IMG/VR virus record: IMGVR_UViG_3300031772_000008
Source: an uncultured virus (IMG/VR IMGVR_UViG_3300031772_000008)
Taxonomy: Duplodnaviria > Heunggongvirae > Uroviricota > Caudoviricetes
Length of the DNA stretch: 31,680 bases
Reading direction: 5' to 3' (one strand)
Below the pieces are notes generated by a model. The model ran no database searches, was not told the DNA's origin, and was given only the letters and a program-made list of their open reading frames with translations. This document shows, one piece after another, positions 92 to 20,306 of this stretch; positions within the stretch are counted from its first letter, which is position 1, and every line of letters begins with the position of its first letter. The position numbers were made by a program, and so were the translations under genes.

Positions 92-108
92 AAATCATTC
101 TCCGATAC

Positions 109-133
109 AAAAAATACCAGAGCAACCTGGTAT
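109..133 (-). terminator. Intrinsic terminator-like hairpin directly upstream of the epimerase SD
   Basis: Minus strand ATACCAG-GTTGCT-CTGGTAT followed by a T run. Confidence 0.7.
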
Positions 134-158: not shown

Positions 159-167
159 ATTATATCA
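159..167 (-). promoter_or_regulatory. Extended -10 promoter element (TGaTATAAT)
   Basis: Minus strand TGA-TATAAT; the TGA is also the stop codon of the upstream gene. Confidence 0.55.
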
Positions 168-491
168 TTCCCTTCTGAGTTGTTGTATGAACATCGCCAT
201 CGCACTTAACGCGAATGGAAGGCTGACAAAAAATGTCACTTTTTGGTTGCAAATCAAGAGGATAGTGAATAATATCCCGAACCATGTAGAAGAACATACT
301 AAACACAGTATCCCAGACGCGATAGAACCACGTTTATATACTGGGTCTGAGAACTGGTCGTACTTAACCCCCGCTTTCATTCGTATCCAGTCTAACATAC
401 CGAACGGCCCACTCTGTTCTGTATCCGCGAGCATATTCGATATTCTCCAAACAGCTAACGGCATTGTTAATATAGACAGGATGGTGTACAT
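165..491 (-). CDS. Small membrane protein, DUF1360-like
   Basis: LAVWRISNML..GPF..R and CLVCSSTW pattern with hydrophobic helices; TAATG overlap with the upstream gene. Confidence 0.6.
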   Translation of the reverse strand: MYTILSILTMPLAVWRISNMLADTEQSGPFGMLDWIRMKAGVKYDQFSDPVYKRGSIASGILCLVCSSTWFGILFTILLICNQKVTFFVSLPFALSAMAMFIQQLRRE

Positions 492-3400
492 TACATTCCA
501 GACGACTTCAATGCACTATCGTAAATAACCGCAGCCCTTTTTGCTCCTATGCCTTCAATAGATTGTAATCCTTCTACCCCTAATTCAACAATATCGTTCC
601 ATGTTTTGACGCCTTTTTTCAATAATATATCTGAAATATTATCTGTTATTCCTGGCAGACTTTGAAAGTCAGGCAGTTTCAATATATCTATCGATGGTGG
701 CGCAAGTCCTTCCGGTGCATTTGCGGGATTTGTTTTTACAAAATCCAATTCTTTCGGAGCATTAACTTCTACCGGAGGAGGAGTAGAGACTGGTTCGCTA
801 ACTGTCATGTTAGGTACTGGTTGAGTGAACGGAATGAACCATCCAGGATGAGTTGCGATATCAGACCTATGAACATAGAATCTCTCCATTCCTCCACCTG
901 CTCTATATCCGTAGTTTATCTTTGTAGACGCCCCAAATACATTGTGCATTCCACGATTTGGATTCTCGTAAGTGATTAATATCATATCATCGTCTACCAT
1001 TGATTTGGTTTCTTGCATGGTTCGTAAAGGTACAGTAATTTGTTTCTTATTTCCACCACAACTTCTGCATGGCATAGTTTCTACTCCTTCCAATTTCTTG
1101 GTAATATAATTCAATAGTTTTTGTGGCATTTGTATGCCTGTTTCTCTTCGACCTCCGGTATAAAACCTATACGCTACCATTGGTTTTGATAAACGTGCGA
1201 AACACTTTCCGTTACGTGCCATCCTGATCCAGTATTCCCAATCTTCCCACGATGGCATGTTCTCATCAAATCCACCTATCTCATCATGCCACGCTTTAGG
1301 GATTAATGTGGTAATAAGATTCCATATATATAAAGGATTAGCAGGTTGAATACAGGCTCTCTCGCAGTCGTAATCACCCGCATAAGATAAATGCATCGCG
1401 AGACCATCTTCTGGATTATAATCCAAAAGTCTATTACTATTCTTGAGTCTTTCAGCCTCTTCTTGAGTTATAAATGCCTTACTGACGTAATCTGTATAAA
1501 CTCCCATGCCTGTTTCGTTCCATCCAGCAACCATACTCTCAAGCGCATCGGGAACTAAAAAGTTATCATCAGCGTCTAGGAATGTTATCAGTCCAGCACG
1601 CGCTTTCTCAACCCCTCTGTTTCTCGCATAACCTGAGCCTTTCTTTCCAGATGTTTTGATTAATTTCACATAAGGATAGGCTGTTAATATGTCTGGAACA
1701 CCATCGTACGTCCATCCGCCCTCTTCACCTGTATCATCTACCAATATAACTTCCCACTTCCTTAGTGTTTGACTTTCAATACTATCTAAGGCATTAATAG
1801 TATGAGGCTTATGCCCCGGCCCTACAGGAATTATGACACTCACTATGGGGTCATCGTATTGTCTTACTGGATGAGTAAGTCTATTGTTCATGGGTGTTGC
1901 AACACATAGAAATGGGTGAAGCTGGTCTTTCGTGGAAGGATGTAACTCTCTCCAGTTTATTTCTCTATATGCTCTGTCTCCACTCACCCTACCGCTCTTG
2001 TATGAATAAATAAACAACGGCGCTTCTGTGACCCTTTTACCCTTAAAACCGTATAGTCCTGCTCTTAACCAGAACTCAGCATCTTCCGATCCGGCTCCTT
2101 TTGGAGCGTATCTACTGCGATATCCTCCCAATCTTTTCCACATTTCTTTCCTGAACATACTGCATGTCGGGATTTGATTAATCCCTCCGGGATAAACCAT
2201 GTTATCAAAATTGTACTCAGGAGGCCATTGGCTTACGGTTTGTTTCCCATCTGGTTCGACTGCCAAGAGTCCTGTATAAGCGATCCCTAGTAGAGGGTCT
2301 GCATCTAACGCTTCTTTACATGCTCTTACCCATTCAGTATCTATTCTATCGTCTGCGTCTAAACATACGATATAATCACCAGTCGCCATAGATATTCCTG
2401 TGTTTCTTGCTACGGCTACACCTGCATTATTCTGATAGTGGTATTTAACATCATACGCTGAGACTACTTGCTTAGTGTCATCTGTGCTTCCATCATCTAC
2501 TACGATAATTTCTTTTACTGGAACAGTTTGGGCTAAGACACTTTCGATTGCTCTACCCACTAAATCAGAGTAGTTGTAACACGGGATAATAACACTTACA
2601 TTATTATTTTTGGGTTGCATCGCCAATTTATAGACTTCGGATAGTTTCTCACATGCTTTATCCCATGTGAATTTTTTAGCCAATTCATTAGCGTTCTTTC
2701 CTAATGTATCTCTGTACTTCAGACAGTATCTTAATCCTTCTGCTAAGTTTTCTATATTCCCTGGTTGCGCTAAATACCCACTCACGCCGTGTTGTATGAA
2801 ATCGTTATTTCCTCCATAAGCATATCCCAATACAGGAGTTCCCGCTGCTAGAGATTCAAGAGTTAGTATTCCAGCAGTTTCTTTCACGGCAGATATTGTT
2901 ACTTCTGCTCTTTGTATTACTTCCTTCATCTTATCGTGGGATAGTAATCCAGTTATTCTTACATTGGACGGTGCATCCGATAATGCGAATGTGCATAAGA
3001 ATAACTTATCAGGGAAAAGTCTCGCTAATTCATTAACATACGCAGGATTGCATACATCTCTTATTCTGTTTTTTGCATACGCTAAGATATATCCATCATT
3101 CGGTAGAGTATGTTGCCATTCATCCCAATCCACTCCATGAGGAACGACGGTTGGATCAACTCTTACATCTCTTTGTATACTCTCAGCTACCCAATTACTT
3201 GGTACTGTTATTTGATCTGCGTGTCTTATTGAGTCAATTACTGCTAAATTTGCTTTCCATTCCTGAGCTAACATGGGTAAGTCCGCGGTCCAATAAACGC
3301 CATGAAGGTGAACAGCACAAGGTATACCACGTGGATATTTACTCCCCATTCCTGCATGAACAGCTAATACATCAAAATTGTCATCGCTTCTTGGAACAAA

Positions 3401-3511
3401 TTCAATTCCATATTTATTCCCATGCTCGAACCATTTCCTAACAACGGTGTGTATCCCGCTTTCTCCGTTCTTTAGATCGTCTACGTGAGGAACACTTCTG
3501 ACTTTAATCAC
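491..3511 (-). CDS. Multidomain glycosyltransferase: GT4 (GT-B) + GT2 + GT2 + C-terminal CxxC and helix-hairpin-helix region
   Basis: GT4 motif ETAGILTLESLAAGTPV; two GT2 starts VSVIIPCYN..VVDDGSTD..CLDADD and VSVIIPV..LVDD..FLDADD, each with an ED motif (SEDAEFW, WEDWEYW); C-terminal LPGIT and IEGIGAKRA HhH motifs. Confidence 0.9.
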   Translation of the reverse strand: MIKVRSVPHVDDLKNGESGIHTVVRKWFEHGNKYGIEFVPRSDDNFDVLAVHAGMGSKYPRGIPCAVHLHGVYWTADLPMLAQEWKANLAVIDSIRHADQITVPSNWVAESIQRDVRVDPTVVPHGVDWDEWQHTLPNDGYILAYAKNRIRDVCNPAYVNELARLFPDKLFLCTFALSDAPSNVRITGLLSHDKMKEVIQRAEVTISAVKETAGILTLESLAAGTPVLGYAYGGNNDFIQHGVSGYLAQPGNIENLAEGLRYCLKYRDTLGKNANELAKKFTWDKACEKLSEVYKLAMQPKNNNVSVIIPCYNYSDLVGRAIESVLAQTVPVKEIIVVDDGSTDDTKQVVSAYDVKYHYQNNAGVAVARNTGISMATGDYIVCLDADDRIDTEWVRACKEALDADPLLGIAYTGLLAVEPDGKQTVSQWPPEYNFDNMVYPGGINQIPTCSMFRKEMWKRLGGYRSRYAPKGAGSEDAEFWLRAGLYGFKGKRVTEAPLFIYSYKSGRVSGDRAYREINWRELHPSTKDQLHPFLCVATPMNNRLTHPVRQYDDPIVSVIIPVGPGHKPHTINALDSIESQTLRKWEVILVDDTGEEGGWTYDGVPDILTAYPYVKLIKTSGKKGSGYARNRGVEKARAGLITFLDADDNFLVPDALESMVAGWNETGMGVYTDYVSKAFITQEEAERLKNSNRLLDYNPEDGLAMHLSYAGDYDCERACIQPANPLYIWNLITTLIPKAWHDEIGGFDENMPSWEDWEYWIRMARNGKCFARLSKPMVAYRFYTGGRRETGIQMPQKLLNYITKKLEGVETMPCRSCGGNKKQITVPLRTMQETKSMVDDDMILITYENPNRGMHNVFGASTKINYGYRAGGGMERFYVHRSDIATHPGWFIPFTQPVPNMTVSEPVSTPPPVEVNAPKELDFVKTNPANAPEGLAPPSIDILKLPDFQSLPGITDNISDILLKKGVKTWNDIVELGVEGLQSIEGIGAKRAAVIYDSALKSSGM

Positions 3512-3860
3512 TTGTCACCCCGTAAATATAATCTTCTTTATCGAATTTCTCACTCGCCAATACTAATAGAGTAGTATTTTCTGTTAGGAATACAATGTTC
3601 ACTATATTCATTGGAGGAACGTGTAATCCTATATCTGGGCAATCCAATATATAATCTTTCCCATCGCCCATTTTAATTAATACCGCCCCACAGACACATA
3701 CAAAGAACTGGTGAGTCTTTTTATGCGCGTGTCCTCCCCTCATTTCCTCAAGAGGAACATTGTAAATAAAGAACACTCTTTTTACTTTGAACGGCAAATC
3801 TTCCAAGACAGTAAGGCTTCCGCGCCGTTCGCTTCTATGAGTTTCTAAAGATACAATCAT
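3504..3860 (-). CDS. fdtA: dTDP-4-keto-6-deoxyhexose 3,4-ketoisomerase (FdtA/QdtA/WxcM cupin family)
   Basis: RGSL, PFKVKRVFFIYNVP, RGGHAHK and LLVLAS..DYI signature motifs. Confidence 0.85.
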   Translation of the reverse strand: MIVSLETHRSERRGSLTVLEDLPFKVKRVFFIYNVPLEEMRGGHAHKKTHQFFVCVCGAVLIKMGDGKDYILDCPDIGLHVPPMNIVNIVFLTENTTLLVLASEKFDKEDYIYGVTSD

Positions 3861-4402
3861 TCTCGTTTCCTGTATGCTCTAAATTTATCCGCAGAATATT
3901 CTGGTAAATAATCATCACCTTGAAGCATATGGTCTACTACGAATTTAACATCAGGCCATTTCTCTTCTCCGTAATCGTGGAAACTTATAAATCCACCTGG
4001 TTTCACATGCCTGTACCAAGTCCTTAAGTCTCCTGTTAATCCTGCTTCTGAATGATCTCCATCTACGTGAAGCCAATCCACAGGAATAGGCCATCTTAGT
4101 CCTGCTATTTTACTATCTCCCCATATTCTTACTACAGTTCCAGTTTGGTCATCACCTGTTTCTTGAAGTCTCAAATGCTCGTTAGTGTAGATTGGTTGTT
4201 CTCCAGCCGCTATGTCAATCGAGAATATAACAACGTCTTGAGTGACTTCTAAAATAGCCAATGTATCCGTCCCTGCTCCCGCGCCTATCTTTACAATAAC
4301 TGCATCTGAAGGAAGTAGCGCGGTTAGATTTTGCATAGCATCTATCTCGGCGTGCGTGGCGTAGCCCTGCCAATCTGATAATTCATATGCGGTTCGAGTC
4401 AT
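3857..4402 (-). CDS. Class I SAM-dependent methyltransferase (Methyltransf_24-like)
   Basis: KIGAGAG, LHVDGDH, VKPGGFISFHDY motifs. Confidence 0.85.
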   Translation of the reverse strand: MTRTAYELSDWQGYATHAEIDAMQNLTALLPSDAVIVKIGAGAGTDTLAILEVTQDVVIFSIDIAAGEQPIYTNEHLRLQETGDDQTGTVVRIWGDSKIAGLRWPIPVDWLHVDGDHSEAGLTGDLRTWYRHVKPGGFISFHDYGEEKWPDVKFVVDHMLQGDDYLPEYSADKFRAYRKRE

Positions 4403-4863
4403 ATTGCCTCCACGTATGCAAATTCACCGAATAATTCTTTTGCCTTTCGATTATAAGCCTCAGATGCATCGTTGATATCTTTATATCGTCCAATGTGAAT
4501 ATATTTATAATTATATTCTATGACAGCCCGCCATTTTTTATTAACTTTATCCCATGATACGCCCTTCTTACCGGATATATTGTTTGGAAAAATACTTCTA
4601 TTAGCTTCGTTTTGCGAATGCGTACAAATTCGCAAATTGTCGCGTCGATTATCGAGTCTACTCCTGTTCTTGTGGTCAACTTCCATACCGTCTGGAGCGA
4701 AAAGAATATATTGATGCATTCTAATGTGCTTTGATTTTTCATTTATTCTAATCTTCCTTTCGGCATACCCATCACTATATAGCCATTTCCATTGTGATAA
4801 ATATTCATAGTCACAATCATCCACGATGGCAACTTTACCCTTCGTTAGTTGTATTGTTCTCAT
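4399..4863 (-). CDS. HNH-AP2 endonuclease (free-standing homing endonuclease type)
   Basis: IQLTKGKVAIVD, VDHKNRSRLDNRRDNLR HNH motif, and AP2 domain SGKKGVSW..KWRA..HIGRY..AYNRKAKELFGEFA; start at 4863 preferred for its ATGA overlap. Confidence 0.9.
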   Translation of the reverse strand: MRTIQLTKGKVAIVDDCDYEYLSQWKWLYSDGYAERKIRINEKSKHIRMHQYILFAPDGMEVDHKNRSRLDNRRDNLRICTHSQNEANRSIFPNNISGKKGVSWDKVNKKWRAVIEYNYKYIHIGRYKDINDASEAYNRKAKELFGEFAYVEAI

Positions 4864-5540
4864 TTTATCCACCTTTCCACCACAGAACGGTGTGGTTCTG
4901 GTATATGTTCTAGTTCATAATTCATAACATCTCCCTTTAGCATTAAATTGCTATAGCGAACAGGCCATTGTCTTGAGCCTAGAACTCTATACGACTGCTT
5001 AGTCATATCTATATACATCTCGGTCATCCACGGGTCATGGTCTGGTTTTAGTAAACTTAGAAAGTTCCGTCTATTCCATATTGCAGCTTGTAAAGACATT
5101 TCATAGGGTGCGTCTTTATCACAAGCTATAATATCATAATGTCCGTAAGATTCTATGTCGCGCATACCCTGTCCGTGTAGTCTATCCGCCGTAAGATCAA
5201 ATCTAACTACATCTTCATGTTCCCGCATATAACTTGCTAGTGTAGAAACCCCTGCACAGTCTGCTGTCCTGCATAATAGATAATCCTCAAGCATCAACAC
5301 GAATACATCATCGTGGAAGTCTTGAAGTAATTTTATCAGTCCATTCGACCATTTCTCTTTCGGATAAGGGTTCTTGTCTATCTGGTGAAATGTAAAGTTA
5401 CTCGGAAGAGGAAACTGGGGAGGCGTAAATCCTCCTATAACAACCTCTTGAAGTTCAGACCAGTATTGATTGAAAAGGTAACAGAAAGGTTTTAAGCACC
5501 ATTGATAGACATCACTTGTATACACAAAGACTCGTATCAT
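4860..5540 (-). CDS. Putative GT-A fold glycosyltransferase
   Basis: WSNGLIKLL..VFVLMLEDYLL and SLQAAIW..PW..E pattern of a GT2-like family; located in a sugar-enzyme cluster. Confidence 0.6.
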   Translation of the reverse strand: MIRVFVYTSDVYQWCLKPFCYLFNQYWSELQEVVIGGFTPPQFPLPSNFTFHQIDKNPYPKEKWSNGLIKLLQDFHDDVFVLMLEDYLLCRTADCAGVSTLASYMREHEDVVRFDLTADRLHGQGMRDIESYGHYDIIACDKDAPYEMSLQAAIWNRRNFLSLLKPDHDPWMTEMYIDMTKQSYRVLGSRQWPVRYSNLMLKGDVMNYELEHIPEPHRSVVERWIK

Positions 5541-6008: not shown

Positions 6009-6198
6009 CGCTCTCCTCTATTTGCTTCGCAACTCCCTCTGCATATTTTCGGTCTACAGTATATCCAATCTGTAATAGATAAATAACTTGACCATTGAAC
6101 GTTCTTCCATTGAGGTCAGCTAGTATATGTATTTTATCATACAGGTCTCCTGGAAACCTTATCGTGTGTGACCGTGACGGTATAGACATTTTTACCAT
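5995..6198 (-). CDS. Arc-like ribbon-helix-helix DNA-binding protein
   Basis: HTIRFPGDLYDKIHILADLNGRTFNGQVIYLL fits the Arc pattern (strand-RxP-helix-GRSxN-helix); GGAGG SD. Confidence 0.8.
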   Translation of the reverse strand: MVKMSIPSRSHTIRFPGDLYDKIHILADLNGRTFNGQVIYLLQIGYTVDRKYAEGVAKQIEESDGEV

Positions 6199-6218
6199 AA
6201 TAATCCTCCAAAGTAGTA

Positions 6219-6247
6219 TTGCACAATTATATCACAACTGGTATAAT
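6219..6247 (+). promoter_or_regulatory. Sigma70-type promoter TTGCAC-N17-TATAAT
   Basis: TTGCAC 6219-6224 and TATAAT 6242-6247, followed by GGAGG SD and ATG at 6266. Confidence 0.8.
6226..6234 (-). promoter_or_regulatory. Extended -10 promoter (TGaTATAAT) for the Arc/glycosyltransferase operon
   Basis: Minus strand TGTGA-TATAAT about 28 nt upstream of the Arc start; overlaps the divergent plus-strand promoter. Confidence 0.65.
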
Positions 6248-6265
6248 TGCGGTATGGAGGACAAT

Positions 6266-6391
6266 ATGTTATCATGTCAATTGGAGGGTCTTGCATTGGA
6301 CGGAGTGTTATGGTCTATAATTGCGTGTACGTTCGTGTTTACAGCATGTATTATTGTAATGATCTATTTCAGAACGAATAAGAAGAAATGA
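6266..6391 (+). CDS. Small single-pass membrane protein (41 aa)
   Basis: GGAGG-5nt-ATG at 6266; hydrophobic helix then RTNKKK; 3' part of track ORF 6095..6391. Confidence 0.7.
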   Translation: MLSCQLEGLALDGVLWSIIACTFVFTACIIVMIYFRTNKKK

Positions 6392-6612
6392 GGAAACATC
6401 CAGGGATTTGGTTCACCCTATGGTCTTTTGAAACCTTGTTCTTTTTATGTCTGTTGTTTGCTGTTTTAGATTTAAGTGAGTTCGAACGAAACTTATCTCA
6501 GTTATTTGTAAGAGTATGGTTGTATATATGTGTATGGTTCATCACTGTATTTCATGTCCGTTGGATGATGAAGATAGACGAGAAACAGTATAAAAAGAAT
6601 AAAGACAAGTAG
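6388..6612 (+). CDS. Small two-helix membrane protein (74 aa)
   Basis: ATGA overlap with the upstream gene; two hydrophobic segments and a charged tail. Confidence 0.7.
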   Translation: MRKHPGIWFTLWSFETLFFLCLLFAVLDLSEFERNLSQLFVRVWLYICVWFITVFHVRWMMKIDEKQYKKNKDK

Positions 6613-6617
6613 GAGCG

Positions 6618-6722
6618 TTATAGGCGTAATGAGCAGTCGCACGACGGAAAAGGCAAACGAACCGAGGCGTGCAGAAAGGTTCTGCTTAACAGAAAGAAGA
6701 GGTGCAATTCCTCACCCTATAA
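6618..6722 (+). ncRNA. Candidate structured RNA with tRNA-like closing stem and T-arm
   Basis: TTATAGG/CCTATAA closing stem; GAGG-TGCAATT-CCTC T-arm-like hairpin next to the 3' strand; inner TGAGCAG/CTGCTTA and GCACG/CGTGC helices. Confidence 0.45.
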
Positions 6723-6752
6723 AAATAGCCTTGGTTTCCCAAGGCTATTTTG
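6723..6752. terminator. Bidirectional intrinsic terminator
   Basis: AAAATAGCCTTGG-TTTC-CCAAGGCTATTTT perfect inverted repeat between convergent units, with T runs on both strands. Confidence 0.9.
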
Positions 6753-6768
6753 TTTTGTACGGATAGGA

Positions 6769-8214
6769 TTAGCGAGTAGACCAAACGGCGTAAGGTGCGT
6801 TCAGGCCACCACGGATTGAGACTCCTCCGTCAGCGAAATATGAGCTGGAGGGGTCGGTGTCTCTGCCGTGTTGTAATGGACTGTATTTAATGGCGTCGAT
6901 TCTTCCTGCCAATTGAGGAGTTCGTAGAACAACACGAGGCTCGACTTTCAATGCGAGTTTGTAGCACCACTTGATCTGTTCTAACGCCCAACTGTAGAAG
7001 CCCTGGTCAGTCCAGAAGAACTGTTCCATGCCTCTCAGAAGATTAACATCTGACTGAGCCTGTCGGTAATCCAGGTACTCGAAATAAGTAACTGGGAAAC
7101 CACCTTGGATGGTCAGTGGGATTGCATAGATCGAAGAAGCGTATTGACCAGGCAGGATATTGGCATTGTCAGCGGGGGTTAACTCTCGGATACCCGTGTC
7201 AGTGATGACAGGATAGCGAACGCCTTCGATGTCAATGTAATTCCCCTGTCGCATAGCATCACGAATCTGGGTCATGCTGGCTGCATCAACCATACCGATG
7301 TTTGAACCAACTTCGTCTCCATTACCTGCACTATTCCAAGGAGAACATCGATAAGTATTATAGCGGCAAGGCCAGCAAGCACTAAGTTCGTGCCATAGAC
7401 CTTTGCGCATCGCTAATACCCATTGAACGGGTGCAACGCCAGTTGAATCAGCGATGTCGTTCAAGTACCACATCATTGAAGAAAGGTACTCTACGATATC
7501 ACGATTGTCACCACATACGAGGTCATAGCCGAAGTTCTTGACATCTGAGTCAAGAGCGGGGCAGGCGACATCTGTATCGGCGTCACTTTGTCCAGTTGCG
7601 ATTTGAACATCTAAGCCTGGGAACTCACCTGCGGCGAAAGCACCTTGCCATGTCTGGTGATTTAACTCACGTTCCATATTGACTGCGGCGATAACCATTT
7701 CGGACATCGTAACTAAGTTAAGGATTTGCCCTTCGTTCATTCCCGAAGGGGTCATTCCGGTCATTCCGAGGACTTTTCCACGCAGGAATAAGTCTGTGAA
7801 ATCACCACGATGTAGTTTTAACATTACATCGTCCATGTCAATAGTCTGGGTGTCGAAGCGGATACGCCCGAAACGTGCAGTTAAGTTACAGCCTTTCATG
7901 TAACCTACAGGTGCGTCGTCACAAGCATGATCTGGTTGAGAGCCTGTTACAGCAGTAAAACCAGTGATAGACCCAAAACGCGGGTCTTGATATACGGTTG
8001 GGATACGGGGTAGTATCGAAGTAATGCCTACCGGACGCATGTGAGTCGTGATGATATCACGCTCTAGCCCTGGCACAGCGAATATACCGCCGCTCCCATG
8101 CAGAGGTGTATAAGTAGAGAACTGAGCAGGCGTCTTAGTGTGATCTTCCTTGTTCGCCAGTTGCTCTAATAGTTGAGTCTGCTTTTCTAGGATTTCGGTA
8201 ACTTTGTCGTCCAT
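6769..8214 (-). CDS. Major capsid protein (probable)
   Basis: 481 aa, directly downstream of the protease/scaffold gene; strong AGGAGG SD; followed by a terminator; GEFPGLDVQI and VVLRTPQLAGRI segments resemble HK97-fold capsid proteins. Confidence 0.75.
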   Translation of the reverse strand: MDDKVTEILEKQTQLLEQLANKEDHTKTPAQFSTYTPLHGSGGIFAVPGLERDIITTHMRPVGITSILPRIPTVYQDPRFGSITGFTAVTGSQPDHACDDAPVGYMKGCNLTARFGRIRFDTQTIDMDDVMLKLHRGDFTDLFLRGKVLGMTGMTPSGMNEGQILNLVTMSEMVIAAVNMERELNHQTWQGAFAAGEFPGLDVQIATGQSDADTDVACPALDSDVKNFGYDLVCGDNRDIVEYLSSMMWYLNDIADSTGVAPVQWVLAMRKGLWHELSACWPCRYNTYRCSPWNSAGNGDEVGSNIGMVDAASMTQIRDAMRQGNYIDIEGVRYPVITDTGIRELTPADNANILPGQYASSIYAIPLTIQGGFPVTYFEYLDYRQAQSDVNLLRGMEQFFWTDQGFYSWALEQIKWCYKLALKVEPRVVLRTPQLAGRIDAIKYSPLQHGRDTDPSSSYFADGGVSIRGGLNAPYAVWSTR

Positions 8215-8226
8215 AGATAAATCCTC

Positions 8227-9711
8227 CTATTGTTTGTTACCGTCCAACAGTTCGTTGATGAAAGGAACTAAAGTCCTTCCAGGAACGTTTGCGGCGGCTT
8301 CCTTCGGCTTGCTCTGGGCAAGCGAAGTTCGTCCATCGACCCTATTTTCGGGTGCGCCAATTGCTGATGTTGCAAACTGACCGAGTAATGCGTTCAGTGA
8401 TGCTGTGGGCGTCCCCTTTAGCACTTGATCGCGTGCATCGCTGGTCTCTTTGATCTGAGTGAGTCCAGCTTCTAACGCGTTCATGCGCTCTAACACAGGG
8501 GCAACAATGCCAGTAACAGCTTCCTGAACTGCTTTTTGCAGGTCAGCAACTGTCAGCGTAACCGTTTCAACAGATTTGGCTTCAGGTTCTTGAGTGGCGG
8601 GCTGGGCTTCCTCATTCTCCTTGCTTTCTAATCCTTCACTTACAGCCTTGTCTGCATCTTCGGCGTTGGCGGCTTCCAGACTTTCCAGGGTTTCAGGTTT
8701 GATACCTAAATTGGAAATCCATTCTTTCTTTGTTTCGTCGGGAATAGCCATAGATTCCTCCTTGCTTTCCAGGTTCAGAACTGCGAACCCGGTTAGCTTG
8801 TTCGCTGCCGCCCACGCTGGCAGAAAACTGATCTCACGGGTTTCGTGTTCCACGATTATAGTAGAGTCAACTTCGTCTCGCTTGATGCTTGAATAAGGCA
8901 TTCCATGCGAAACTTTTATCGGCTCTTTAGACTTCATCAGCGCCTCGGCAACATTCTCTTTTCCAACATCAAATGTTCCTAAAGCTACTGCAAATCCTAA
9001 CTCATCATAAGCAACACCATGCGCTTTGCCTACTTTCCATTCTTTCTTATGCCAAGGCCACAACTCAGGCATAGGTGCTTTCCCTTCCTTGACCAAATTT
9101 ACAAATCTCTTGTGGCTCTCGGAAGAAATTATCTCGCGTGGATTGTCATCGTCTCTGAATTTATTAGAGTAACGTGCCATCCACCAGTATTGATTACCTT
9201 GCTTCCACACTGTAATTCCAGTCTGGTCTTCAGGTTCATCCTTGAATAACTTCTTGAACATAACCCCAACTTCCTTTAACTTCGCAAACAAATCTTTCTT
9301 GGCAATAGGCTTTGTTACCTCCGCGGTATCGCACTGTTCTACAGTTTTCTCTTCAAAAATAGGGACAGGTGTAATAGTTTCTACGAACTCTTTCTTTTTC
9401 TTCCCCTCTTCATCCAACTCATCATCATCTTCTTCTTCAGGGATAAGGGCGACACGCGCCTTCCATTCATCTAACACCGCTGAAGCGCGCTCTGGTTTAT
9501 CCCCATCCGAATCACCAGCAATACCCTTCAGTAAATCAAGTGCTGCATCAGTCATCTCTTTAGCTTCACTAGCGTATAATGCTCTTGCATGCGCACTTGC
9601 ATCCGCTTTGCTGGCGTGACAGCCACCAGGAATTACATCGCCCGGACTGTCGTCCGCGTTGATCTTGTGAACACAGTACTTTTCACCATCTTTTGAAACT
9701 TTCCAGGGCAT
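8227..9711 (-). CDS. Prohead protease/scaffold protein (probable)
   Basis: Position before the capsid gene; GGAGG-5nt-ATG at 9711 (MPWK); central PWH..VSHG..EISFLP..AAN protease-like motifs; acidic coiled-coil C-terminus. Confidence 0.7.
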   Translation of the reverse strand: MPWKVSKDGEKYCVHKINADDSPGDVIPGGCHASKADASAHARALYASEAKEMTDAALDLLKGIAGDSDGDKPERASAVLDEWKARVALIPEEEDDDELDEEGKKKKEFVETITPVPIFEEKTVEQCDTAEVTKPIAKKDLFAKLKEVGVMFKKLFKDEPEDQTGITVWKQGNQYWWMARYSNKFRDDDNPREIISSESHKRFVNLVKEGKAPMPELWPWHKKEWKVGKAHGVAYDELGFAVALGTFDVGKENVAEALMKSKEPIKVSHGMPYSSIKRDEVDSTIIVEHETREISFLPAWAAANKLTGFAVLNLESKEESMAIPDETKKEWISNLGIKPETLESLEAANAEDADKAVSEGLESKENEEAQPATQEPEAKSVETVTLTVADLQKAVQEAVTGIVAPVLERMNALEAGLTQIKETSDARDQVLKGTPTASLNALLGQFATSAIGAPENRVDGRTSLAQSKPKEAAANVPGRTLVPFINELLDGNKQ

Positions 9712-14831: not shown

Positions 14832-15725
14832 CTACATACGAGAGAATGTCATCTGTTCCGGTGTAATATCAGTTGCCTTTTGACTGCCTCGATATTCGTC
14901 AAACGGCATAAATCCAAGCATATTCAGTCTTGCATAATATCGCATATAATCAGCCAATTCTTTGTATGTCCAGTTTGGTGATATATATTCATTCTTTCGT
15001 TTTGCATGTAACGGTTGATACCGCATTGGATTAGGTAATGCACCCATCCCCCTAACAGTATCTAATCTATATCGTGCATCATCAGGAGTATCGTTATATC
15101 CAATTAGTACATAGACCCTGATCTGTTGTGTTTTTATTCCATGCTTTATAAGTAATTCAAATGCCTTTCGATATTTATATTCAGTTTTTGTATCATCCCA
15201 TGCCAATCTAATAATAGTATCTTTAGGTAATTCCTCAAATCTAATAGCATGATGTATAGATAGCAACCGTGCGTCTAGTCCCTGATTGAAGTCAATCCCC
15301 GATATATTATTCTCAAGTAGTCGGTCAATAACTTTATCAAAGTGTGAATCACTACATGCCAATAGATTGTTATCGCATATTATAGGATTTACTTTCCAGT
15401 CGTCAAGCTCTACCAACTTACCCTCAATTTTAGGAACGGCACAGAATGAACAATTACGGATACATCCCCGACTGGTAAATGTCGCATCGGGATTATGTCT
15501 TTCTAGCGCGTCCGGTAAACCCGTAAGGTCAAACGCCGTAAACATTGATGGATTATTGATAATCGCTGGACCTCCAACTTTAACATAAAAACCAGATGAT
15601 TGAAGAAAGAGTGCCCGCATGTATGCTTTATCTAGTTGCCATGAAAACACACAGGACACATACGCTGTATCTTCCTCAATCCAATCTATCAGCCCACCAG
15701 ACCAACTCACTTTTTCTTTTCCCAT
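14832..15725 (-). CDS. Radical SAM enzyme
   Basis: TSRGCIRNCSFC (CxxxCxxC), DNNLL, DFNQGLDARL, YVLIGY, PMRY motifs; VGGP in the N-terminal region. Confidence 0.9.
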   Translation of the reverse strand: MGKEKVSWSGGLIDWIEEDTAYVSCVFSWQLDKAYMRALFLQSSGFYVKVGGPAIINNPSMFTAFDLTGLPDALERHNPDATFTSRGCIRNCSFCAVPKIEGKLVELDDWKVNPIICDNNLLACSDSHFDKVIDRLLENNISGIDFNQGLDARLLSIHHAIRFEELPKDTIIRLAWDDTKTEYKYRKAFELLIKHGIKTQQIRVYVLIGYNDTPDDARYRLDTVRGMGALPNPMRYQPLHAKRKNEYISPNWTYKELADYMRYYARLNMLGFMPFDEYRGSQKATDITPEQMTFSRM

Positions 15726-15913
15726 TCAATCATATTGCGGATATGCACAATGGCATATAGAATGACACCAGGAATCAACCCCCATTGTTGTATATGGATT
15801 GCATAGATAAGCCACAGTATCTGATTAGCAATGCCTACCCGTGGCCCCCATTTGCTCTTATTACCCATCAGCCAAAGCATTGTTGCAGAAGTAAAACTAA
15901 GTATCCATGCCAT
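15707..15913 (-). CDS. Small membrane protein, PnuC-like half-transporter pattern
   Basis: WLMGNKSKWG..GIANQILWLIYAI..QQWG; three short hydrophobic helices. Confidence 0.55.
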   Translation of the reverse strand: MAWILSFTSATMLWLMGNKSKWGPRVGIANQILWLIYAIHIQQWGLIPGVILYAIVHIRNMIEWEKKK

Positions 15914-15916
15914 CTA

Positions 15917-16669
15917 TCACATACCTCCCGCGACTGGTTTACCTTGTAAGCCCTCAGAATTAAAGAGACGCCTCCCACCTACGGCATTTATTTCTAAAGC
16001 CGCTTGAGCATTAGTATGAGGATTGTCACCGCAGGAACGATTGTGGAGGATACGGACTGTAGATACTACGCATACGCCAAATCCAAATCGCGCATGATAC
16101 TCTTCCGTCAATACATACATATTGATATACTTATTGATCCACAGCGCTTCTCTGAGAGGTCCTTGATCGTTGTTTTTGTAAACTTCTGGGTGTTTTTCGT
16201 AAAGTTCTAACCAGTCTGCAAATAAATTTTTAACGTGCTCGTTTGTTTTAACTAGCATGACTCCGATTTCAAACTCTGGAAATGAATTAGGAATATAACT
16301 GACTGTATTCGTTGTCTGACGAGTCACCCCATGACTCACACAAATATCAAACCTATCTGCTAGTTCAAACAAGTCATCTATGGGAGCAGCTACATACGTA
16401 TCTGTGTCAAGGAATAATATATTATCAAAGTCATTACGCAGAGCGTTAAATGCTTCACCAACGTATCTCGTACTATCGAGATACCATATGTCGGGGTATC
16501 TTCGAGGGGATAGTTCTATCAACCCATCGTATCCCGATGGGACGTGCTTAACGTCTGTCGCGAGAATACACGGTATATCTGGATGCCATCTCTTAAAACT
16601 CTCGCGACTCTCTATCGCATCGATTGTGTAACTTTCACCACCTGCTATCCAAACGACTGCTGATTTCAT
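15917..16669 (-). CDS. GT-A glycosyltransferase (GT8-like / nucleotide-diphospho-sugar transferase)
   Basis: ILFLDTDTYV DxD motif, IGVMLVK, NDQGPLREALW, RILH. Confidence 0.8.
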   Translation of the reverse strand: MKSAVVWIAGGESYTIDAIESRESFKRWHPDIPCILATDVKHVPSGYDGLIELSPRRYPDIWYLDSTRYVGEAFNALRNDFDNILFLDTDTYVAAPIDDLFELADRFDICVSHGVTRQTTNTVSYIPNSFPEFEIGVMLVKTNEHVKNLFADWLELYEKHPEVYKNNDQGPLREALWINKYINMYVLTEEYHARFGFGVCVVSTVRILHNRSCGDNPHTNAQAALEINAVGGRRLFNSEGLQGKPVAGGM

Positions 16670-16914
16670 GTATCCTTCCCGTCTAAATAATTTCTCATTG
16701 ACCCAATAGCTATTGCAATTTCTTCGGCTTTTTTCGTATATTCTTTTATAAATGCAGACATTATCGATGGCAATTCCGTAATAGGCAAATCCATTACACC
16801 ACCCACTGTTACTTGTTCTAACAATTCAAGCATATCAGAAAATTCCATCTTGCTTGTATAAAATTTATACAAAGCACTCAGCGGAACTTTAGTAAAATCT
16901 ATTTTATGTTCCAT
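16666..16914 (-). CDS. Hypothetical protein
   Basis: 82-aa ORF with ATGA overlap to the downstream gene. Confidence 0.7.
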   Translation of the reverse strand: MEHKIDFTKVPLSALYKFYTSKMEFSDMLELLEQVTVGGVMDLPITELPSIMSAFIKEYTKKAEEIAIAIGSMRNYLDGKDT

Positions 16915-16925
16915 ATTCTACCCTT

Positions 16926-17825
16926 TCACAGTATCTCAAGTGTCCTTATCACAAACTTGCACCAGTGCCCATAACTTAAAAAGTCATCATAGGTTATCTT
17001 TGATAACTCGCCCATTTTTAGCAACTTCCCTCTTATTTTATCCAGAATACCTAGGTAGTTCTTTAAGTATAATGTATCTTGCATCCAGAAAGAACATATA
17101 TCCCAATCAATCCAGTTTTGAAATGGTCTGCAATCCATGTCTGAAATATAAAACGGCACAACACCTAACTGCATGGCTTCGTAAAACCTGAATGATTGCG
17201 CACCTTGTCCTCTCGGTGCTAAAGCAATATAAGACTCTAGTATTATTTTTGTGAACTCATCTGTTGGTACACCCGCATGTTCTACTCTACAATTTTCCAT
17301 TCCCTTTAATTCATCACGCATGGACATTCTAATTCCATCTGTCTCTAAATTGCCCATGAAAGATGTTAACCATTTCTTCTCAGGTAACGGAGTAGGGAAC
17401 GGATGAGGTTCAGATAGTAGTGGAATATCAATACCCGTATTGCCTCTTCGACTTGCACAAAACATTACCATATCGTTCCAGTAAATGTCGGGCATCATAA
17501 CTCGTATGTCTGCCTCTGCAATCGTGAATGTTGGCATATCGTAAGATAATATTCGTTCAACCTCTTCAGCTAGTTCATCGACATTCCCACCCCAATTACC
17601 TCCTAAATCTCTATTGACGAAAAAATGACGATTCCAGAATATTGGGACGTATATCCAATCTGCCTTAGATATATCATCCACAAGCATCTCGTCTTGCAAT
17701 ATCCATTCATCGAAGTCTTGTTCTACACCACGATCCCCATTTTGGACTTGATTCTGTGGAGGCCACACGAATTCTTGATGTGTGGGTCTAAATTTATCCT
17801 CAACTGGCATTCGGTATATTTTCAT
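16926..17825 (-). CDS. Exostosin-family (GT47) glycosyltransferase
   Basis: ADWIYVPIFW, SFMG, and ALAPRGQGAQSFRFYEAMQLGVVPFYISD..PF..WIDW GT47 signature; start at 17825 (MKIY) preferred. Confidence 0.85.
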   Translation of the reverse strand: MKIYRMPVEDKFRPTHQEFVWPPQNQVQNGDRGVEQDFDEWILQDEMLVDDISKADWIYVPIFWNRHFFVNRDLGGNWGGNVDELAEEVERILSYDMPTFTIAEADIRVMMPDIYWNDMVMFCASRRGNTGIDIPLLSEPHPFPTPLPEKKWLTSFMGNLETDGIRMSMRDELKGMENCRVEHAGVPTDEFTKIILESYIALAPRGQGAQSFRFYEAMQLGVVPFYISDMDCRPFQNWIDWDICSFWMQDTLYLKNYLGILDKIRGKLLKMGELSKITYDDFLSYGHWCKFVIRTLEIL

Positions 17826-18351
17826 TCTCGACCTTTCTGTATACAATGAGAGTTCCTCTGCGAGCAACAAATTCCAACTTAAGCACTTTGACCACATCAT
17901 CAACTGCCCTCTTTACATTCTCTAACATGGGAGATTCGTAATCATGGAACGCCATGATACCATTAGGCTTTAATGTTTCATACCACACTAAAGCATCTTC
18001 GGTACATTCTTCGTACCTGTGTCCACCATCAATGAATACGAAATCAACATCTTCTCGTTCCCAATTAACACCGAATATTCTTGAGTCTTGTTTGAAGAAC
18101 CAATAGCGATCTGTATTACAGTATCCAGTCTCTTTCATAACCATCTCTTCATAAGGACAGTCATCAATGTCTACACTTATAACTACAGAATCTTGTCTCG
18201 CTTCAAGCATAGAGAGAGCAGATGTACCCATCCCTGCACCTATATTAATACATAACGGACTATCAGGAAGTTCTTTGACTATCTTCTTGATTAACTCTAC
18301 ATCACTTACTTGACAGTAATATTCTATTCCTGTATTTTCAATGGCTTTCAT
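17800..18351 (-). CDS. Class I SAM-dependent methyltransferase (Methyltransf_24-like)
   Basis: NIGAGMGTS, FVFIDGGHRYE, LKPNGIMAFHDY. Confidence 0.85.
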   Translation of the reverse strand: MKAIENTGIEYYCQVSDVELIKKIVKELPDSPLCINIGAGMGTSALSMLEARQDSVVISVDIDDCPYEEMVMKETGYCNTDRYWFFKQDSRIFGVNWEREDVDFVFIDGGHRYEECTEDALVWYETLKPNGIMAFHDYESPMLENVKRAVDDVVKVLKLEFVARRGTLIVYRKVENENIPNAS

Positions 18352-18658
18352 CGATTAATTCCTCTATAGACCAGTATACTTTAATCTTTCTAAGCAACGC
18401 AATAGTCACTTCATTCTCTGCCCCAGAACTTTCCCCTGGTAAACGTAGTAAACAATCGCACTTTTTGAGCCACGCTAAATCAAGATCATACCAGAATTTA
18501 ATATCGTGTGGATGTATCAAATGCCAGAATAAAGTTAGATGTGGAACGTATGGATAGTATCCATGAGTAGCTAATTCATCTGCGGCATGTATAACATTGG
18601 CAGTATTCACAACAGGGTCATCGTGCGTATAAGGTCCTGCTATGTAAACGTATTTCAT
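18338..18658 (-). CDS. DUF4406 / nucleoside deoxyribosyltransferase-like protein
   Basis: VYIAGPYT, PYVPH, WLKKCDCLLRLPGESSGAENE motifs. Confidence 0.75.
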   Translation of the reverse strand: MKYVYIAGPYTHDDPVVNTANVIHAADELATHGYYPYVPHLTLFWHLIHPHDIKFWYDLDLAWLKKCDCLLRLPGESSGAENEVTIALLRKIKVYWSIEELIDESH

Positions 18659-19740
18659 GCTACCCTCTCAACGCTCGTGATAAATGCAGGCCAATCTATT
18701 CTCTTCCCCCACCTTCCAGTAGCTATTAATTTTTCTACTGCTTCTTCTGTCCCCATTGAATAATCGTCTAAATCTCGTATAGCTAATATACCTTTGTACA
18801 CAATATGCTTTTCCCACATCAATAAATCCTCTACCAATCTACCTTTGTTTCCTAGGTCGTGGATAAGCATCGCAATAGGTTCTTTCCAAGTTAAAGTTAA
18901 CTCTCTGCACTCACCCTTACATAACTCTGGACTCGCGTTGGATTTAATCATATTCTCGTGCCAAATCAATTCATCCTCAGGTACATAAGGTTCGCCTATC
19001 CATCCATAACGTACTGTATAGCTGTCTATCGCAATGACTTTATTCTTTTTCCCATCTTGAGCGCCATACCATAAGGGTACTGTCCCAAAACCATGATACG
19101 ACCCAAGTTCTACTATCACCCCTCTTGGGGGAGCCATTAACGCAAGCTCATAGAACGCAGTTGCTTTACGCCTGTTGTATACTGAAAGTCCTCTTTGATC
19201 GTTGTTTTGAATGAACTCGAAAGCCTTCTCAAGTCCAGGTCTTGGTTCAATTATCTTTTTAGCATCCATAATTAAACTCGTGTAGTGAGGTTTCCCATCT
19301 TGATTCCTTGGGTCGCTTGATAGACATCTCTCTATATTTCCGTCTATCTCGTTCCATGCCCTTGCGTTAAACTTTCCGTTCTCATCGAACCACTCTAAAA
19401 GATTAACAATAAACCCTGCCTGCGCTAATAGATCACTCAATACATGATAGTTGTATAAAATCTTATGCTCCATATTTGGAGGACTTACATAGGCAATATA
19501 TTCAGGGTCAGGGTGATACCCGTCTGGGGTTGAAACCCTTATATATCCATCAGGATTGATGTGCTTATAACAGTTCTTAAAAGCTGGTAGTATTTTATCT
19601 TTAGGGATATGTTCTACAACATCTTCCAAAAGCATCGCATCTAACTCACCTTCAAAGTCAAGGGTAATATCTATTTGATTTTCTTCTGTAGAAACCCACC
19701 CCTCTTGAGTCTTTCCTCCAGCACCTATGATTATTTTCAT
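18655..19740 (-). CDS. Two-domain SAM-dependent methyltransferase
   Basis: N-domain IIIGAG..EDVVEHI..INPDGYIRVSTPD; C-domain VELGSYHG..AIDSY..GILAIRD. Confidence 0.8.
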   Translation of the reverse strand: MKIIIGAGGKTQEGWVSTEENQIDITLDFEGELDAMLLEDVVEHIPKDKILPAFKNCYKHINPDGYIRVSTPDGYHPDPEYIAYVSPPNMEHKILYNYHVLSDLLAQAGFIVNLLEWFDENGKFNARAWNEIDGNIERCLSSDPRNQDGKPHYTSLIMDAKKIIEPRPGLEKAFEFIQNNDQRGLSVYNRRKATAFYELALMAPPRGVIVELGSYHGFGTVPLWYGAQDGKKNKVIAIDSYTVRYGWIGEPYVPEDELIWHENMIKSNASPELCKGECRELTLTWKEPIAMLIHDLGNKGRLVEDLLMWEKHIVYKGILAIRDLDDYSMGTEEAVEKLIATGRWGKRIDWPAFITSVERVA

Positions 19741-20306
19741 GCGTCCTCGTTTTCAAATTCGACTCTATCGGTTTCTGATTCAGGTAATCTTATCCAAATT
19801 GCAGTTTTCCATCCTTCATCGCCCCATTCCATACCATCCCACGTATCCATCAGTTTGACCGCATTGGCGTACTCAACTCTCTCGCTATTATCCAAGCAAA
19901 GCATACCACCGATCTTTACTTTACTCCTTGAGTTACCTAAACACCTACATCGATTTCTCCCGTCTATTAACACAAGGTCGAATGATTCGTCTGGAAATTC
20001 CAAAATATAATCTGCGTAGTCTTGGATGTTTTTATACTCCCAATGACGTAAATCTGCTTTCAGCTTTTCAACTGCGAGTCGACCATATATATTTAACTTC
20101 CAACTCAAATCTAACTCGCATGAAATAACTTCACATCCTAATTTAGCAAGCCATATTGTACTTGCCCCCGTACCCCACTCAAACACATTCGGTTTATTGA
20201 ATAACATGCTCTCGATATAACGTGCAGAACCAGGTCTCAACCAGGGTTGATATTCCTCCATCGCCGTATCCGCTAATATAAAACCGCCATGTCCCATGTA
20301 TTTCAT
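19737..20306 (-). CDS. Class I SAM-dependent methyltransferase
   Basis: PWL, VFEWGTGASTIW, FDLVLIDGRNR, GGMLCLDNSER. Confidence 0.85.
   Translation of the reverse strand: MKYMGHGGFILADTAMEEYQPWLRPGSARYIESMLFNKPNVFEWGTGASTIWLAKLGCEVISCELDLSWKLNIYGRLAVEKLKADLRHWEYKNIQDYADYILEFPDESFDLVLIDGRNRCRCLGNSRSKVKIGGMLCLDNSERVEYANAVKLMDTWDGMEWGDEGWKTAIWIRLPESETDRVEFENEDA

Follow-up and report, generated by a model that had tools for sequence, protein, structure and literature searches.

A fused triple glycosyltransferase of uncultivated tailed phages, with a conserved internal start and a swappable tail, as the putative core of a virion-glycosylation operon

The window analysed here is a stretch of 31,680 nucleotides from an uncultured tailed phage (IMG/VR record IMGVR_UViG_3300031772_000008), and the element under study is its gene for a triple glycosyltransferase (GT) at 491..3511. 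The window belongs to a tailed phage, as seen from its genes for TerL (phrog_2, 4.2e-28), a DnaB-like helicase and HNH proteins. Region 491..3511 is a single open reading frame (ORF) on the minus strand, and the plus strand there is closed by many stops. The encoded chain combines three GT domains with a domain opened by an invariant pair of cysteines (below, the Cys-pair domain), a proline-rich linker and a helix-hairpin-helix tail of the (HhH)2 type. In the aligned loci, a conserved Shine-Dalgarno (SD) sequence and a start codon mark the boundary between the second GT2 domain and the Cys-pair domain. In our reading, the gene encodes the central enzyme of a phage virion-glycosylation operon, and the 3' end of the gene doubles as a nested one; this composite prediction we regard as evenly poised. 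The elements of the gene are as follows.

491..3511, minus strand: full ORF, 1006 residues, GTG start; GT4-GT2-GT2, Cys-pair domain, linker, (HhH)2 (ORF calling, Pfam, homologue alignment)
2624..3511, minus strand: GT4 domain (GT-B), residues 1–296, with invariant E211 and E219 (PF00534, 4.8e-16; PF13439, 3.1e-8)
1877..2602, minus strand: first GT2 domain (GT-A), residues 304–545, with DxD residues D385/D387/D388 (PF00535, 6.6e-37)
1097..1849, minus strand: second GT2 domain, residues about 555–805, with DxD residues D646/D648/D649 (PF00535, 8.2e-15)
1084..1089, minus strand: internal SD core AAGGAG, 8 nt upstream of the internal ATG (sequence; core in 55 of 65 loci)
1073..1075, minus strand: internal start codon ATG, Met813 (start codon in 65 of 67 loci)
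491..1075, minus strand: proposed nested in-frame gene, 194 residues (Met813–Met1006) and stop (comparative evidence)
803..1075, minus strand: Cys-pair domain, residues 813–903, with M-P-C-R-S-C, a five-stranded beta core and invariant Y867 and D884 (alignment, AlphaFold2 (AF2) model)
689..802, minus strand: Pro-rich flexible linker, residues 904–941 (AF2 predicted local distance difference test, pLDDT, about 64)
512..688, minus strand: (HhH)2 domain, residues 942–1000 (Pfam, profile, AF2, fold search)

In the whole protein, Pfam recognises Glycos_transf_2 (PF00535, 5.1e-52) in two stretches, Glycos_transf_1 (PF00534, 2.9e-15), Glyco_transf_4 (PF13439, 2e-7) and, at residues 948–999, HHH_5 (5.1e-7; 30.5 bits with a cut-off of 27). 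Each GT domain still scores above the curated Pfam cut-off when excised; for the GT4 domain the scores are 59.2 bits with PF00534 (cut-off 26.4) and 34.3 bits with PF13439 (cut-off 28.5). The EX7E motif, the defining mark of the GT4 family, is formed by E211 and E219, both invariant in the 59 aligned full-length homologues, and so are the DxD residues of both GT2 copies. Judging by these residues, one chain comprises one retaining-type GT4 and two inverting-type GT2 domains, all with intact catalytic motifs. The protein has no hydrophobic segment and is read as soluble. Pfam and the alignment agree with the initial annotation, made from the sequence alone, which had seen GT4, GT2 and GT2 domains, a CRSC motif, a Pro-rich linker and HhH motifs in a chain of 1006 residues.

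The same annotation had proposed an assembly-line enzyme that adds several sugars in order. Since three catalytically intact GT domains are present in one chain, a multi-step sugar-adding enzyme is a reasonable prediction. The ordered addition of several sugars is uncertain: among solved structures, E. coli K4 chondroitin polymerase matches the tandem GT2 domains best in sequence (1e-25, two stretches), and because the pair is nearest to a two-domain alternating polysaccharide polymerase, the product may instead be a repeating polymer chain. We treat alternating polymerisation by the GT2 pair as a lead only.

The window's phage is present in several sediment metagenomes, and the gene is covered by contigs of four other, independent sediment metagenome runs. 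The junction of the second GT2 domain and the tail is bridged by contigs of runs X3 and X4 with zero differences and by a contig of X5 with 13 substitutions and no gap; the sole indel listed is an in-frame insertion of 3 nt at position 1023 in one X4 contig. As independent contigs bridge the junction without frame-breaking indels, the fusion is not an assembly artefact.

The fusion is not confined to the window either. In a word-indexed search, 7997 candidates were scored and 1140 proteins reached E≤1e-3. The top 120 of these have 917–1078 residues and 44–100% identity; they include the window's own cluster, and the fusion is common to the other 119. A profile scan of IMG/VR found 116 viral stretches encoding the family, from which 79 distinct loci were kept. 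Hence the fusion is recurrent and not a one-off loss of a stop codon, an outcome that the initial annotation had allowed for; by these comparisons, it is the usual arrangement in a large clade of uncultivated phages. The viral contigs with this family span 37–66% GC. In the cultured-phage database no record covers 80% of the GT protein, and the best matches are generic GT2 proteins. Five full-length relatives (L087–L091) come from bins of metagenome-assembled genomes labelled Anaerolineales, Bathyarchaeia, Saccharibacteria, Desulfuromonadales and Hermodarchaeota; phage contigs were probably drawn into these bins, so the labels indicate no host.

In four loci (L001/L062, L014, L052 and L058), the gene is split between the GT4 and the first GT2 domain by an ORF on the opposite strand, and the GT4 and GT2 halves can thus evidently work as separate chains. 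The splitting ORF is a LAGLIDADG endonuclease gene in L052 (10878–11690, minus strand; 4e-22), has a weak match to DUF968 in L001 (8923–9423, minus strand) and L058 (10917–11558, minus strand), and has no family match in L014 (10899–11642, minus strand). The sugar operon is a site of mobile endonuclease genes, the HNH/AP2 ORF of the window (listed below) included.

The CRSC motif noted earlier is confirmed as C815-R-S-C818; what had gone unrecognised is that it opens a conserved domain of about 90 residues. Both cysteines are invariant in the aligned homologues, as are G854, G860, Y867 and D884. The arrangement of M-x-C-x(0-3)-C after the second GT2 domain, a variable spacer and a beta-rich core is found in every member of the family down to 31% identity. 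The AF2 model of residues 813–1006 (50-row alignment, mean pLDDT 85.5) has five strands and a short helix at module residues 31–95 (pLDDT 92–96), and the N-terminal arm that holds the Cys pair is of low confidence (pLDDT 62–72). The domain has no Pfam family at E≤10, its profile has no significant match among the PDB sequences (best E 0.5), and a search of the ESM Atlas with this part gave no usable match.

A hidden Markov model (HMM) of the Cys-pair domain finds it in 75 of 80 loci, fused to the second GT2 domain in all of them except L053. There it is a separate ORF (8008–8415, plus strand) that starts 2 nt past the GT stop. L066 has, besides the fused domain, an extra stand-alone copy about 8 kb downstream (21407–21763, plus strand); these two are the only loci with the domain as a separate gene. 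A near-length search for stand-alone Cys-pair proteins gave one match. A search of a representative library gave many matches of 130–270 residues beginning exactly at MxCxxC; these were rejected as stand-alone genes, seven of the eight close ones being on contigs of at most 2.3 kb, mostly as contig-end fragments.

The nested start was surveyed in 67 distinct loci, the window and 66 others, with 31–51% protein identity. A start codon is present within four residues ahead of the Cys pair in 65 of the 67 (55 ATG, nine GTG and one TTG). All nine valines in the start column are encoded by GTG, against 1509 GTG among the 4739 Val codons of the ORFs surveyed. Upstream, at 5–18 nt, an SD core is present in 55 of 65 loci, compared with the 45% expected from synonymous codon resampling (binomial 6e-11), and the amino acids that this stretch encodes are not conserved. 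At other internal ATGs the core is seen in 106 of 1094 cases. The median energy of the anti-SD duplex is −8.4 versus −3.0 kcal/mol (Mann–Whitney U test, 4.5e-31). The SD frequency along the ORF peaks in the bin of the nested start (0.334 versus the median of 0.118; 56 loci), and the local mRNA folding is weaker at the nested start than at 929 other internal Met codons (−11.6 versus −15.9; Mann–Whitney U test, 4e-8). In a divergent strain, six changes are listed within 1099–1133, none of them in the SD or the ATG. A scan for sigma-70 promoters gave 18 candidates with 21.5 expected, and no internal promoter.

The conserved start codon and the SD enriched beyond the needs of the peptide imply a nested in-frame product of about 194 residues, and the tail module is probably also made as a separate protein of this size. 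In the proposed scheme, ribosomes would also initiate at Met813 and yield a free protein composed of the Cys-pair beta domain, the Pro-rich stalk and the HhH head, and the continuous ORF would still yield the 110-kDa fusion of 1006 residues alongside it.

The gene is embedded in an operon with the following neighbours.

100..133, minus strand: terminator-like hairpins closing the operon
165..491, minus strand: DUF1360-like small membrane protein, 108 residues; its ATG overlaps the GT stop (TAATG), CxxC invariant
3504..3860, minus strand: FdtA/WxcM-C-like sugar-nucleotide isomerase, overlapping the GT start (PF05523, 1.2e-30)
3857..4402, minus strand: Methyltransf_24 methyltransferase (homologues in 30–33 of 80 loci, same strand)
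4399..4872, minus strand: HNH/AP2 endonuclease ORF, between the methyltransferase gene and P0124
4860..5540, minus strand: P0124, a conserved partner of 226 residues and of no known family (42 of 80 loci, same strand)
6722..6751, no strand assigned: 13-bp palindromic terminator-like hairpin, directly after the capsid gene
6769..8214, minus strand: major capsid protein, 481 residues, HK97-type (ESM Atlas)

Between the hairpins, all on the minus strand, are small ORFs, P0124, the HNH ORF and the genes of the Methyltransf_24 protein, the isomerase, the GT and the DUF1360-like protein. The capsid protein is identified through the ESM Atlas, by a feature score of 0.99 to capsid clusters and template-modelling (TM) scores of 0.5–0.54 to SU10_MCP/Phage_capsid models; it has no match in the cultured-phage database. 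A protein of 498 residues encoded upstream of the capsid gene has no match in PDB. The gene order is kept across the relatives: 53 of 80 loci encode a capsid homologue upstream of the GT and on its strand, and the capsid protein diverges in step with the GT (28–58% identity, 43 loci). Of the 65 loci with enough sequence downstream, 54 have the DUF1360-like gene there on the same strand, 44 of them within 400 nt; the product of this gene has three hydrophobic segments and is translationally coupled to the GT. The relatives encode, further downstream and on the same strand, a protein of 423 residues, a BNR-repeat protein and, at about 7 kb, a tape measure protein (2.9e-26). Beside the GT they have 4,6-dehydratases, DegT aminotransferases, a GNAT protein and extra GT2 and GT10-like genes.

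The CxxC of the DUF1360-like protein (C63 and C66, in C-x-W-C-x-S-x-W) is invariant in 41 of 41 sequences. P0124 has the invariant residues W64, D86, D115, D119 and R120 and a stretch LMLEDYW. It has no match in Pfam, PHROG, NCBIfam or the PDB sequences and may be an unrecognised GT-A-like enzyme. The GC skew flips between the capsid gene and the sugar operon, where two plus-strand ORFs of 98 and 74 residues (6095–6612) and a promoter-like sequence, TGCACA-16-TATAAT with an upstream TG (6220–6247, plus strand), are situated.

The sugar operon of the GT gene is bounded by terminators and situated between the genes of the major capsid protein and the tail, so we favour virion glycosylation as the function of the gene. 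Analogy with the known cassettes compared below inclines us, slightly, to place it at the centre of a virion-glycan operon. The glycan, perhaps a repeating polymer, would be made by the GT4 domain together with the GT2 pair and attached to virion proteins, with the capsid as the likeliest acceptor. Sharing its module with the free protein, the 110-kDa enzyme would be placed where the small protein sits, in the manner of the herpesvirus pair UL26/UL26.5. The HhH or AT-hook head would most likely hold the module on DNA or another polyanion near the packaging capsids. Candidate sites for the module are DNA, the capsid surface or the membrane protein, the latter via a shared metal site; such a site, a zinc clasp formed by the CxxC of the DUF1360-like protein and the Cys pair of the nested protein, is conceivable.

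Several points weigh against this scheme. All support for virion glycosylation, for the nested product and for DNA binding is comparative. The protein has no sequence similarity to gp35–38 of mycobacteriophage Corndog (the best BLASTP E is 0.059, and family profiles give nothing), so the relation to that cassette is one of analogy, not of membership. The coupled membrane protein fits a membrane-associated, lipid-linked pathway equally well, and an SD-like site within the ORF could be a relic of a past fusion. Further points of this kind concern the tail and are best seen together with its variation.

The linker that carries the tail has 13–82 residues in the family (median 42.5), with 20% Pro, 12% Glu, 10% Val, 10% Ala and 4.8% Thr. 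Behind it, the excised tail of the window protein matches HHH_5 at 1.4e-8 (35.5 bits, cut-off 27), and the AF2 model has a three-helix HhH head with pLDDT 95–97. The profile and the model agree that the tail folds as HhH, as the initial annotation supposed, and VIA also supports the fold; the "tandem HhH motifs" of that annotation are, however, a single (HhH)2 domain. The fold searches covered the HhH part. Foldseek with the model of the head gave only E values of 0.03–0.4, and in the viral structure library only HhH matches were found, besides poor long alignments. The family HhH profile comes nearest to DNA-handling domains, namely PolX (8e-11), the N-terminal domains of Rad51/RadA (2e-10 to 1e-8) and AlkA and Dbh (about 1e-6 to 1e-7); NusA AR and the alpha-CTD of RNA polymerase score about 2e-6. 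The second hairpin retains the pattern G-I-G-x-K/R-R-A.

Tail types in the best 120 homologues were assigned by HMM for HhH, and the remaining 19 proteins were re-sorted by eye. There are 101 HhH tails, nine AT-hooks of the GRP type (e.g. KRGRPKK, KPGRPKK) and seven other Lys/Arg-rich tails; three proteins have none. The 67 loci include 24 with HhH, three with a GRP hook (L001, L011 and L079) and about ten with other basic ends. GRP AT-hooks are minor-groove DNA motifs; a GRP core flanked by Lys/Arg occurs in these relatives and not in the window protein. No association was seen between AT-hook tails and AT-rich genomes. On the tree of the GT core, which was built roughly with FastTree from a fast alignment and is flagged for long branches, at least 19 changes of tail type are needed; the well-supported branches alone require at least four changes for HhH and at least seven for basic ends. 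The C-terminal tail, as compared across these proteins, is a swappable module that can be HhH, an AT-hook, a basic peptide, another helical domain or absent. That relatives swap HhH for AT-hooks or Lys/Arg-rich ends favours a putative role of the tail in binding nucleic acids or other polyanions.

Other properties of the tails count against a DNA tether. Most of the HhH domains are acidic (median net charge −2, pI 4.9). The best PDB match of the window HhH alone is NusA AR2, a protein-binding (HhH)2 domain (E 0.014), and in the fold search the NusA and SAM domains are level to within 1 Z. About 15 of the 67 loci stop within 25 residues of the beta domain and have no tail. L047 has a tail not of a nucleic-acid type, Pfam E3_binding (peripheral-subunit-binding; 4.9e-6), and the tails of L035, L055, L065 and L066 are formed by a conserved helical motif, (L/F)TV.EIK...E..GK.R.TVL. 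This motif, seen in four of the 67 loci, has no Pfam or PDB match, and the label "SAP/HeH-like" considered for it was dropped for want of such support.

The alternative that survives best is drawn from the same data: the tail would be a protein–protein adaptor and not a DNA binder, either a capsid- or scaffold-binding peptide or a NusA-AR-like module, comparable to the C-terminal ends of the herpes and P22 scaffolds and to the cargo tags of encapsulins. It is suggested by the acidity of the HhH domains, the NusA and SAM results and the replacement of HhH by E3_binding in one relative. The shared C-terminus of UL26/UL26.5 binds the major capsid protein, according to the available part of the source (PMC4498786), which points the same way. 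With the family profile, on the other hand, the DNA-repair HhH domains outscore NusA and the alpha-CTD by four orders of magnitude, and the second hairpin keeps its G-I-G-x-K/R-R-A pattern. The GRP AT-hooks of nine of the best 120 homologues and of three loci also speak for DNA. We therefore consider the adaptor unlikely, although a serious contender; it would alter only the tether part of the virion-glycosylation scheme.

Membrane-associated glycan synthesis on the host envelope or on a lipid-linked carrier, with the DUF1360-like protein as the anchor, is a second alternative, and a doubtful one; receptor masking late in infection and a secreted polysaccharide would be examples. It accords with the small coupled CxxC membrane protein, downstream of the GT in 54 of the 65 loci, and with the nearest sequence relatives that the GT domains have in NCBIfam and PDB, which are enzymes of polysaccharide, teichoic-acid and extracellular polysaccharide synthesis, the K4 chondroitin polymerase being the top solved match. 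The PHROGs label of the GT2 part, "GtrB-like O-antigen conversion", is of the same kind; but the acceptor does not follow from generic GT family names. Against this alternative, the GT lacks any hydrophobic segment, its place in a head–tail morphogenesis operon is kept across 28–58% capsid identity, and no flippase, polymerase (Wzy), ligase or priming phosphotransferase was found beside the GT in the scanned representatives.

It is also conceivable that the internal SD and start are not used, being a relic of a two-gene arrangement or a pause site, and that only the 1006-residue fusion is made. The ORF is unbroken in 64 of 65 loci, no RNA run is listed as containing the window's phage, and SD-like hexamers occur elsewhere in the ORF, with SD frequencies of up to 0.25 in other 10-codon bins. 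A relic would decay, however, yet the ATG, GTG or TTG is kept in 65 of 67 loci at the low protein identity of the survey, with GTG for every valine of the start column. The SD exceeds the requirement of a peptide that is itself variable, and the mRNA structure is relaxed as at genuine starts. Hence an idle start is improbable.

The initial annotation took the HhH tail as a sign of DNA hypermodification, or of tethering to DNA or the procapsid. In the case of hypermodification, the tail would anchor the protein to phage DNA, whose bases would be glycosylated by the three GT domains. HhH and AT-hooks are indeed DNA-binding module types, and a catalytic part joined by a flexible linker to a binding module may be likened to enzymes tethered to a polymeric substrate. 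In the complete relative G002 there is a weak match to a C5-methylase. The preprint of Pyle et al., in its accessible text, reports that DNA-glycosylating GTs can adjoin epimerases, secondary GTs and even the terminase; the GTs in that text have no DNA-binding domain, and the terms "DNA-binding" and "fusion" occur in it zero times. However, the known pyrimidine hydroxyl acceptors, 5-hydroxymethylcytosine (5hmC), 5-hydroxymethyluracil (5hmU) and 5-hydroxycytosine (5hoC), all require homologues of thymidylate synthase (ThyS) or 5mYOX/TET enzymes, as far as the available parts of the sources go (PMC13326640; Pyle et al., preprint). No ThyS homologue (PF00303) was found in any of five near-complete relatives (four of them at least 90% complete), with the control positive in 10 of 14 genomes; Tet_JBP (PF12851) was found in none of the five either, a weak result, as its control gave no match in any genome. 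Neither family is seen among the 123 ORFs of G002 (87.7 kb) or the scanned ORFs of the window (31.7 kb). The conserved neighbours are capsid, tail, sugar-nucleotide and methyltransferase genes, not genes of DNA metabolism, and about 15 of the 67 relatives have no tail to hold DNA with. Like the alpha- and beta-GT of T4 and the phage GTs linked to 5mYOX/ThyS, the protein is built of GT-A and GT-B enzymes, and a tail of a DNA-binding type would suit a DNA substrate; unlike in the phage DNA-glycosylation pathways, no ThyS/TET partner was found and the gene context is different. Taken together, base glycosylation is very unlikely.

Two related readings, judged jointly, seem highly improbable. In the first, phage DNA would be the assembly site of the enzyme and its nested DNA-binding partner, which would then sugar-coat either the DNA, by a ThyS/TET-free route, or a carrier protein bound to it; this carrier would be the nested protein, with its invariant Cys pair, Tyr and Asp as potential acceptor residues, and genome shielding of a novel type would result. 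In the second, the free protein would be a capsid-surface stalk whose DNA-binding head sticks virions to extracellular DNA in the biofilms of sediments.

Elsewhere in the window, a second island of sugar chemistry is situated between the terminase gene and the early region (14832–20306, minus strand), beyond the sampled flanks of the relatives. It contains radical-SAM, GT8-like and GT47 (exostosin)-like genes, two or three genes of the Methyltransf_24/23 type and a DUF4406/nucleoside-deoxyribosyltransferase-like ORF. Next to it, an ORF at 20303–21343 (minus strand) encodes an N-terminal Myb-like DNA-binding domain (1.4e-10) fused to a metallophosphoesterase-like part (phrog_221).

Returning to virion glycosylation, its phage-encoded form is known from a few mycobacteriophages, and the GT family described here would be a much larger and widespread version of it in uncultivated phages. 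If the nested start is real, a 110-kDa enzyme shares its targeting module with a separately translated small protein, and the logic of a capsid protease and its scaffold is applied to sugar chemistry. The swappable tail on a Pro-rich stalk is a natural experiment on the placement of an enzyme in the infected cell. The Cys-pair domain, P0124 and the CxxC membrane protein are three conserved families without an assigned function that can now be tested together. The new elements are thus the conserved internal start, the swappable tail and the three unassigned partner families. In the literature searched, with subscription journals largely outside it, neither this architecture nor a nested start in a GT was found.

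The virion-glycosylation systems to compare are the cassettes of the mycobacteriophages Corndog (cluster O) and Che8 (cluster F). In cluster O, an O-methyltransferase and three tandem GTs modify the capsid and the tail tube, according to the parts of the reports available to us (PMC11600133, PMC12363180). As in the cluster O cassettes, a methyltransferase and several GTs are encoded here inside a block of structural (head) genes; in Corndog, gp35–38 are situated directly before the capsid protease. Unlike gp35–38, the three GTs are here fused in one polypeptide, and the Cys-pair domain, the nested start, the nucleic-acid-type tail and the coupled membrane protein set the present locus apart from the mycobacteriophage cassettes.

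At the level of the enzyme, the GT2 pair resembles E. coli K4 chondroitin polymerase (PDB 2z86/2z87) and the heparosan synthases, which also have two tandem GT-A domains per chain; these enzymes build capsular glycosaminoglycans and have no GT4, Cys-pair or HhH domain. The A111/114R protein of chlorovirus PBCV-1 has, to our knowledge, no nested gene or DNA-binding tail. The accessible part of its description gives it three GT functions in one protein, for the glycan of the capsid protein (PMC7826918). The likeness to it is by description only, and it differs in belonging to a eukaryotic giant virus and making N-glycans.

For the nested gene, the models come from capsid assembly. In phage lambda, the gene of the scaffold Nu3 is nested in C. 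Nu3 interacts with the protease C, according to the part of the report available (PMC3224144). A parallel in gene layout is herpesvirus UL26/UL26.5, from a virus of the HK97 lineage. In the available text of the source, these are in-frame overlapping genes with common 3' ends, and the enzyme-bearing long product accumulates in capsids via the C-terminal part that it shares with the abundant short product and that targets the enzyme to the capsid (PMC4498786). The present locus is similar, by its genes alone, in having the enzyme in the N-terminal part, a conserved internal start with a ribosome-binding site, and a shared C-terminal module. UL26 joins a protease to the scaffold as the shared part; the present locus instead pairs a triple GT with a shared module of a small beta domain, a stalk and an HhH head.

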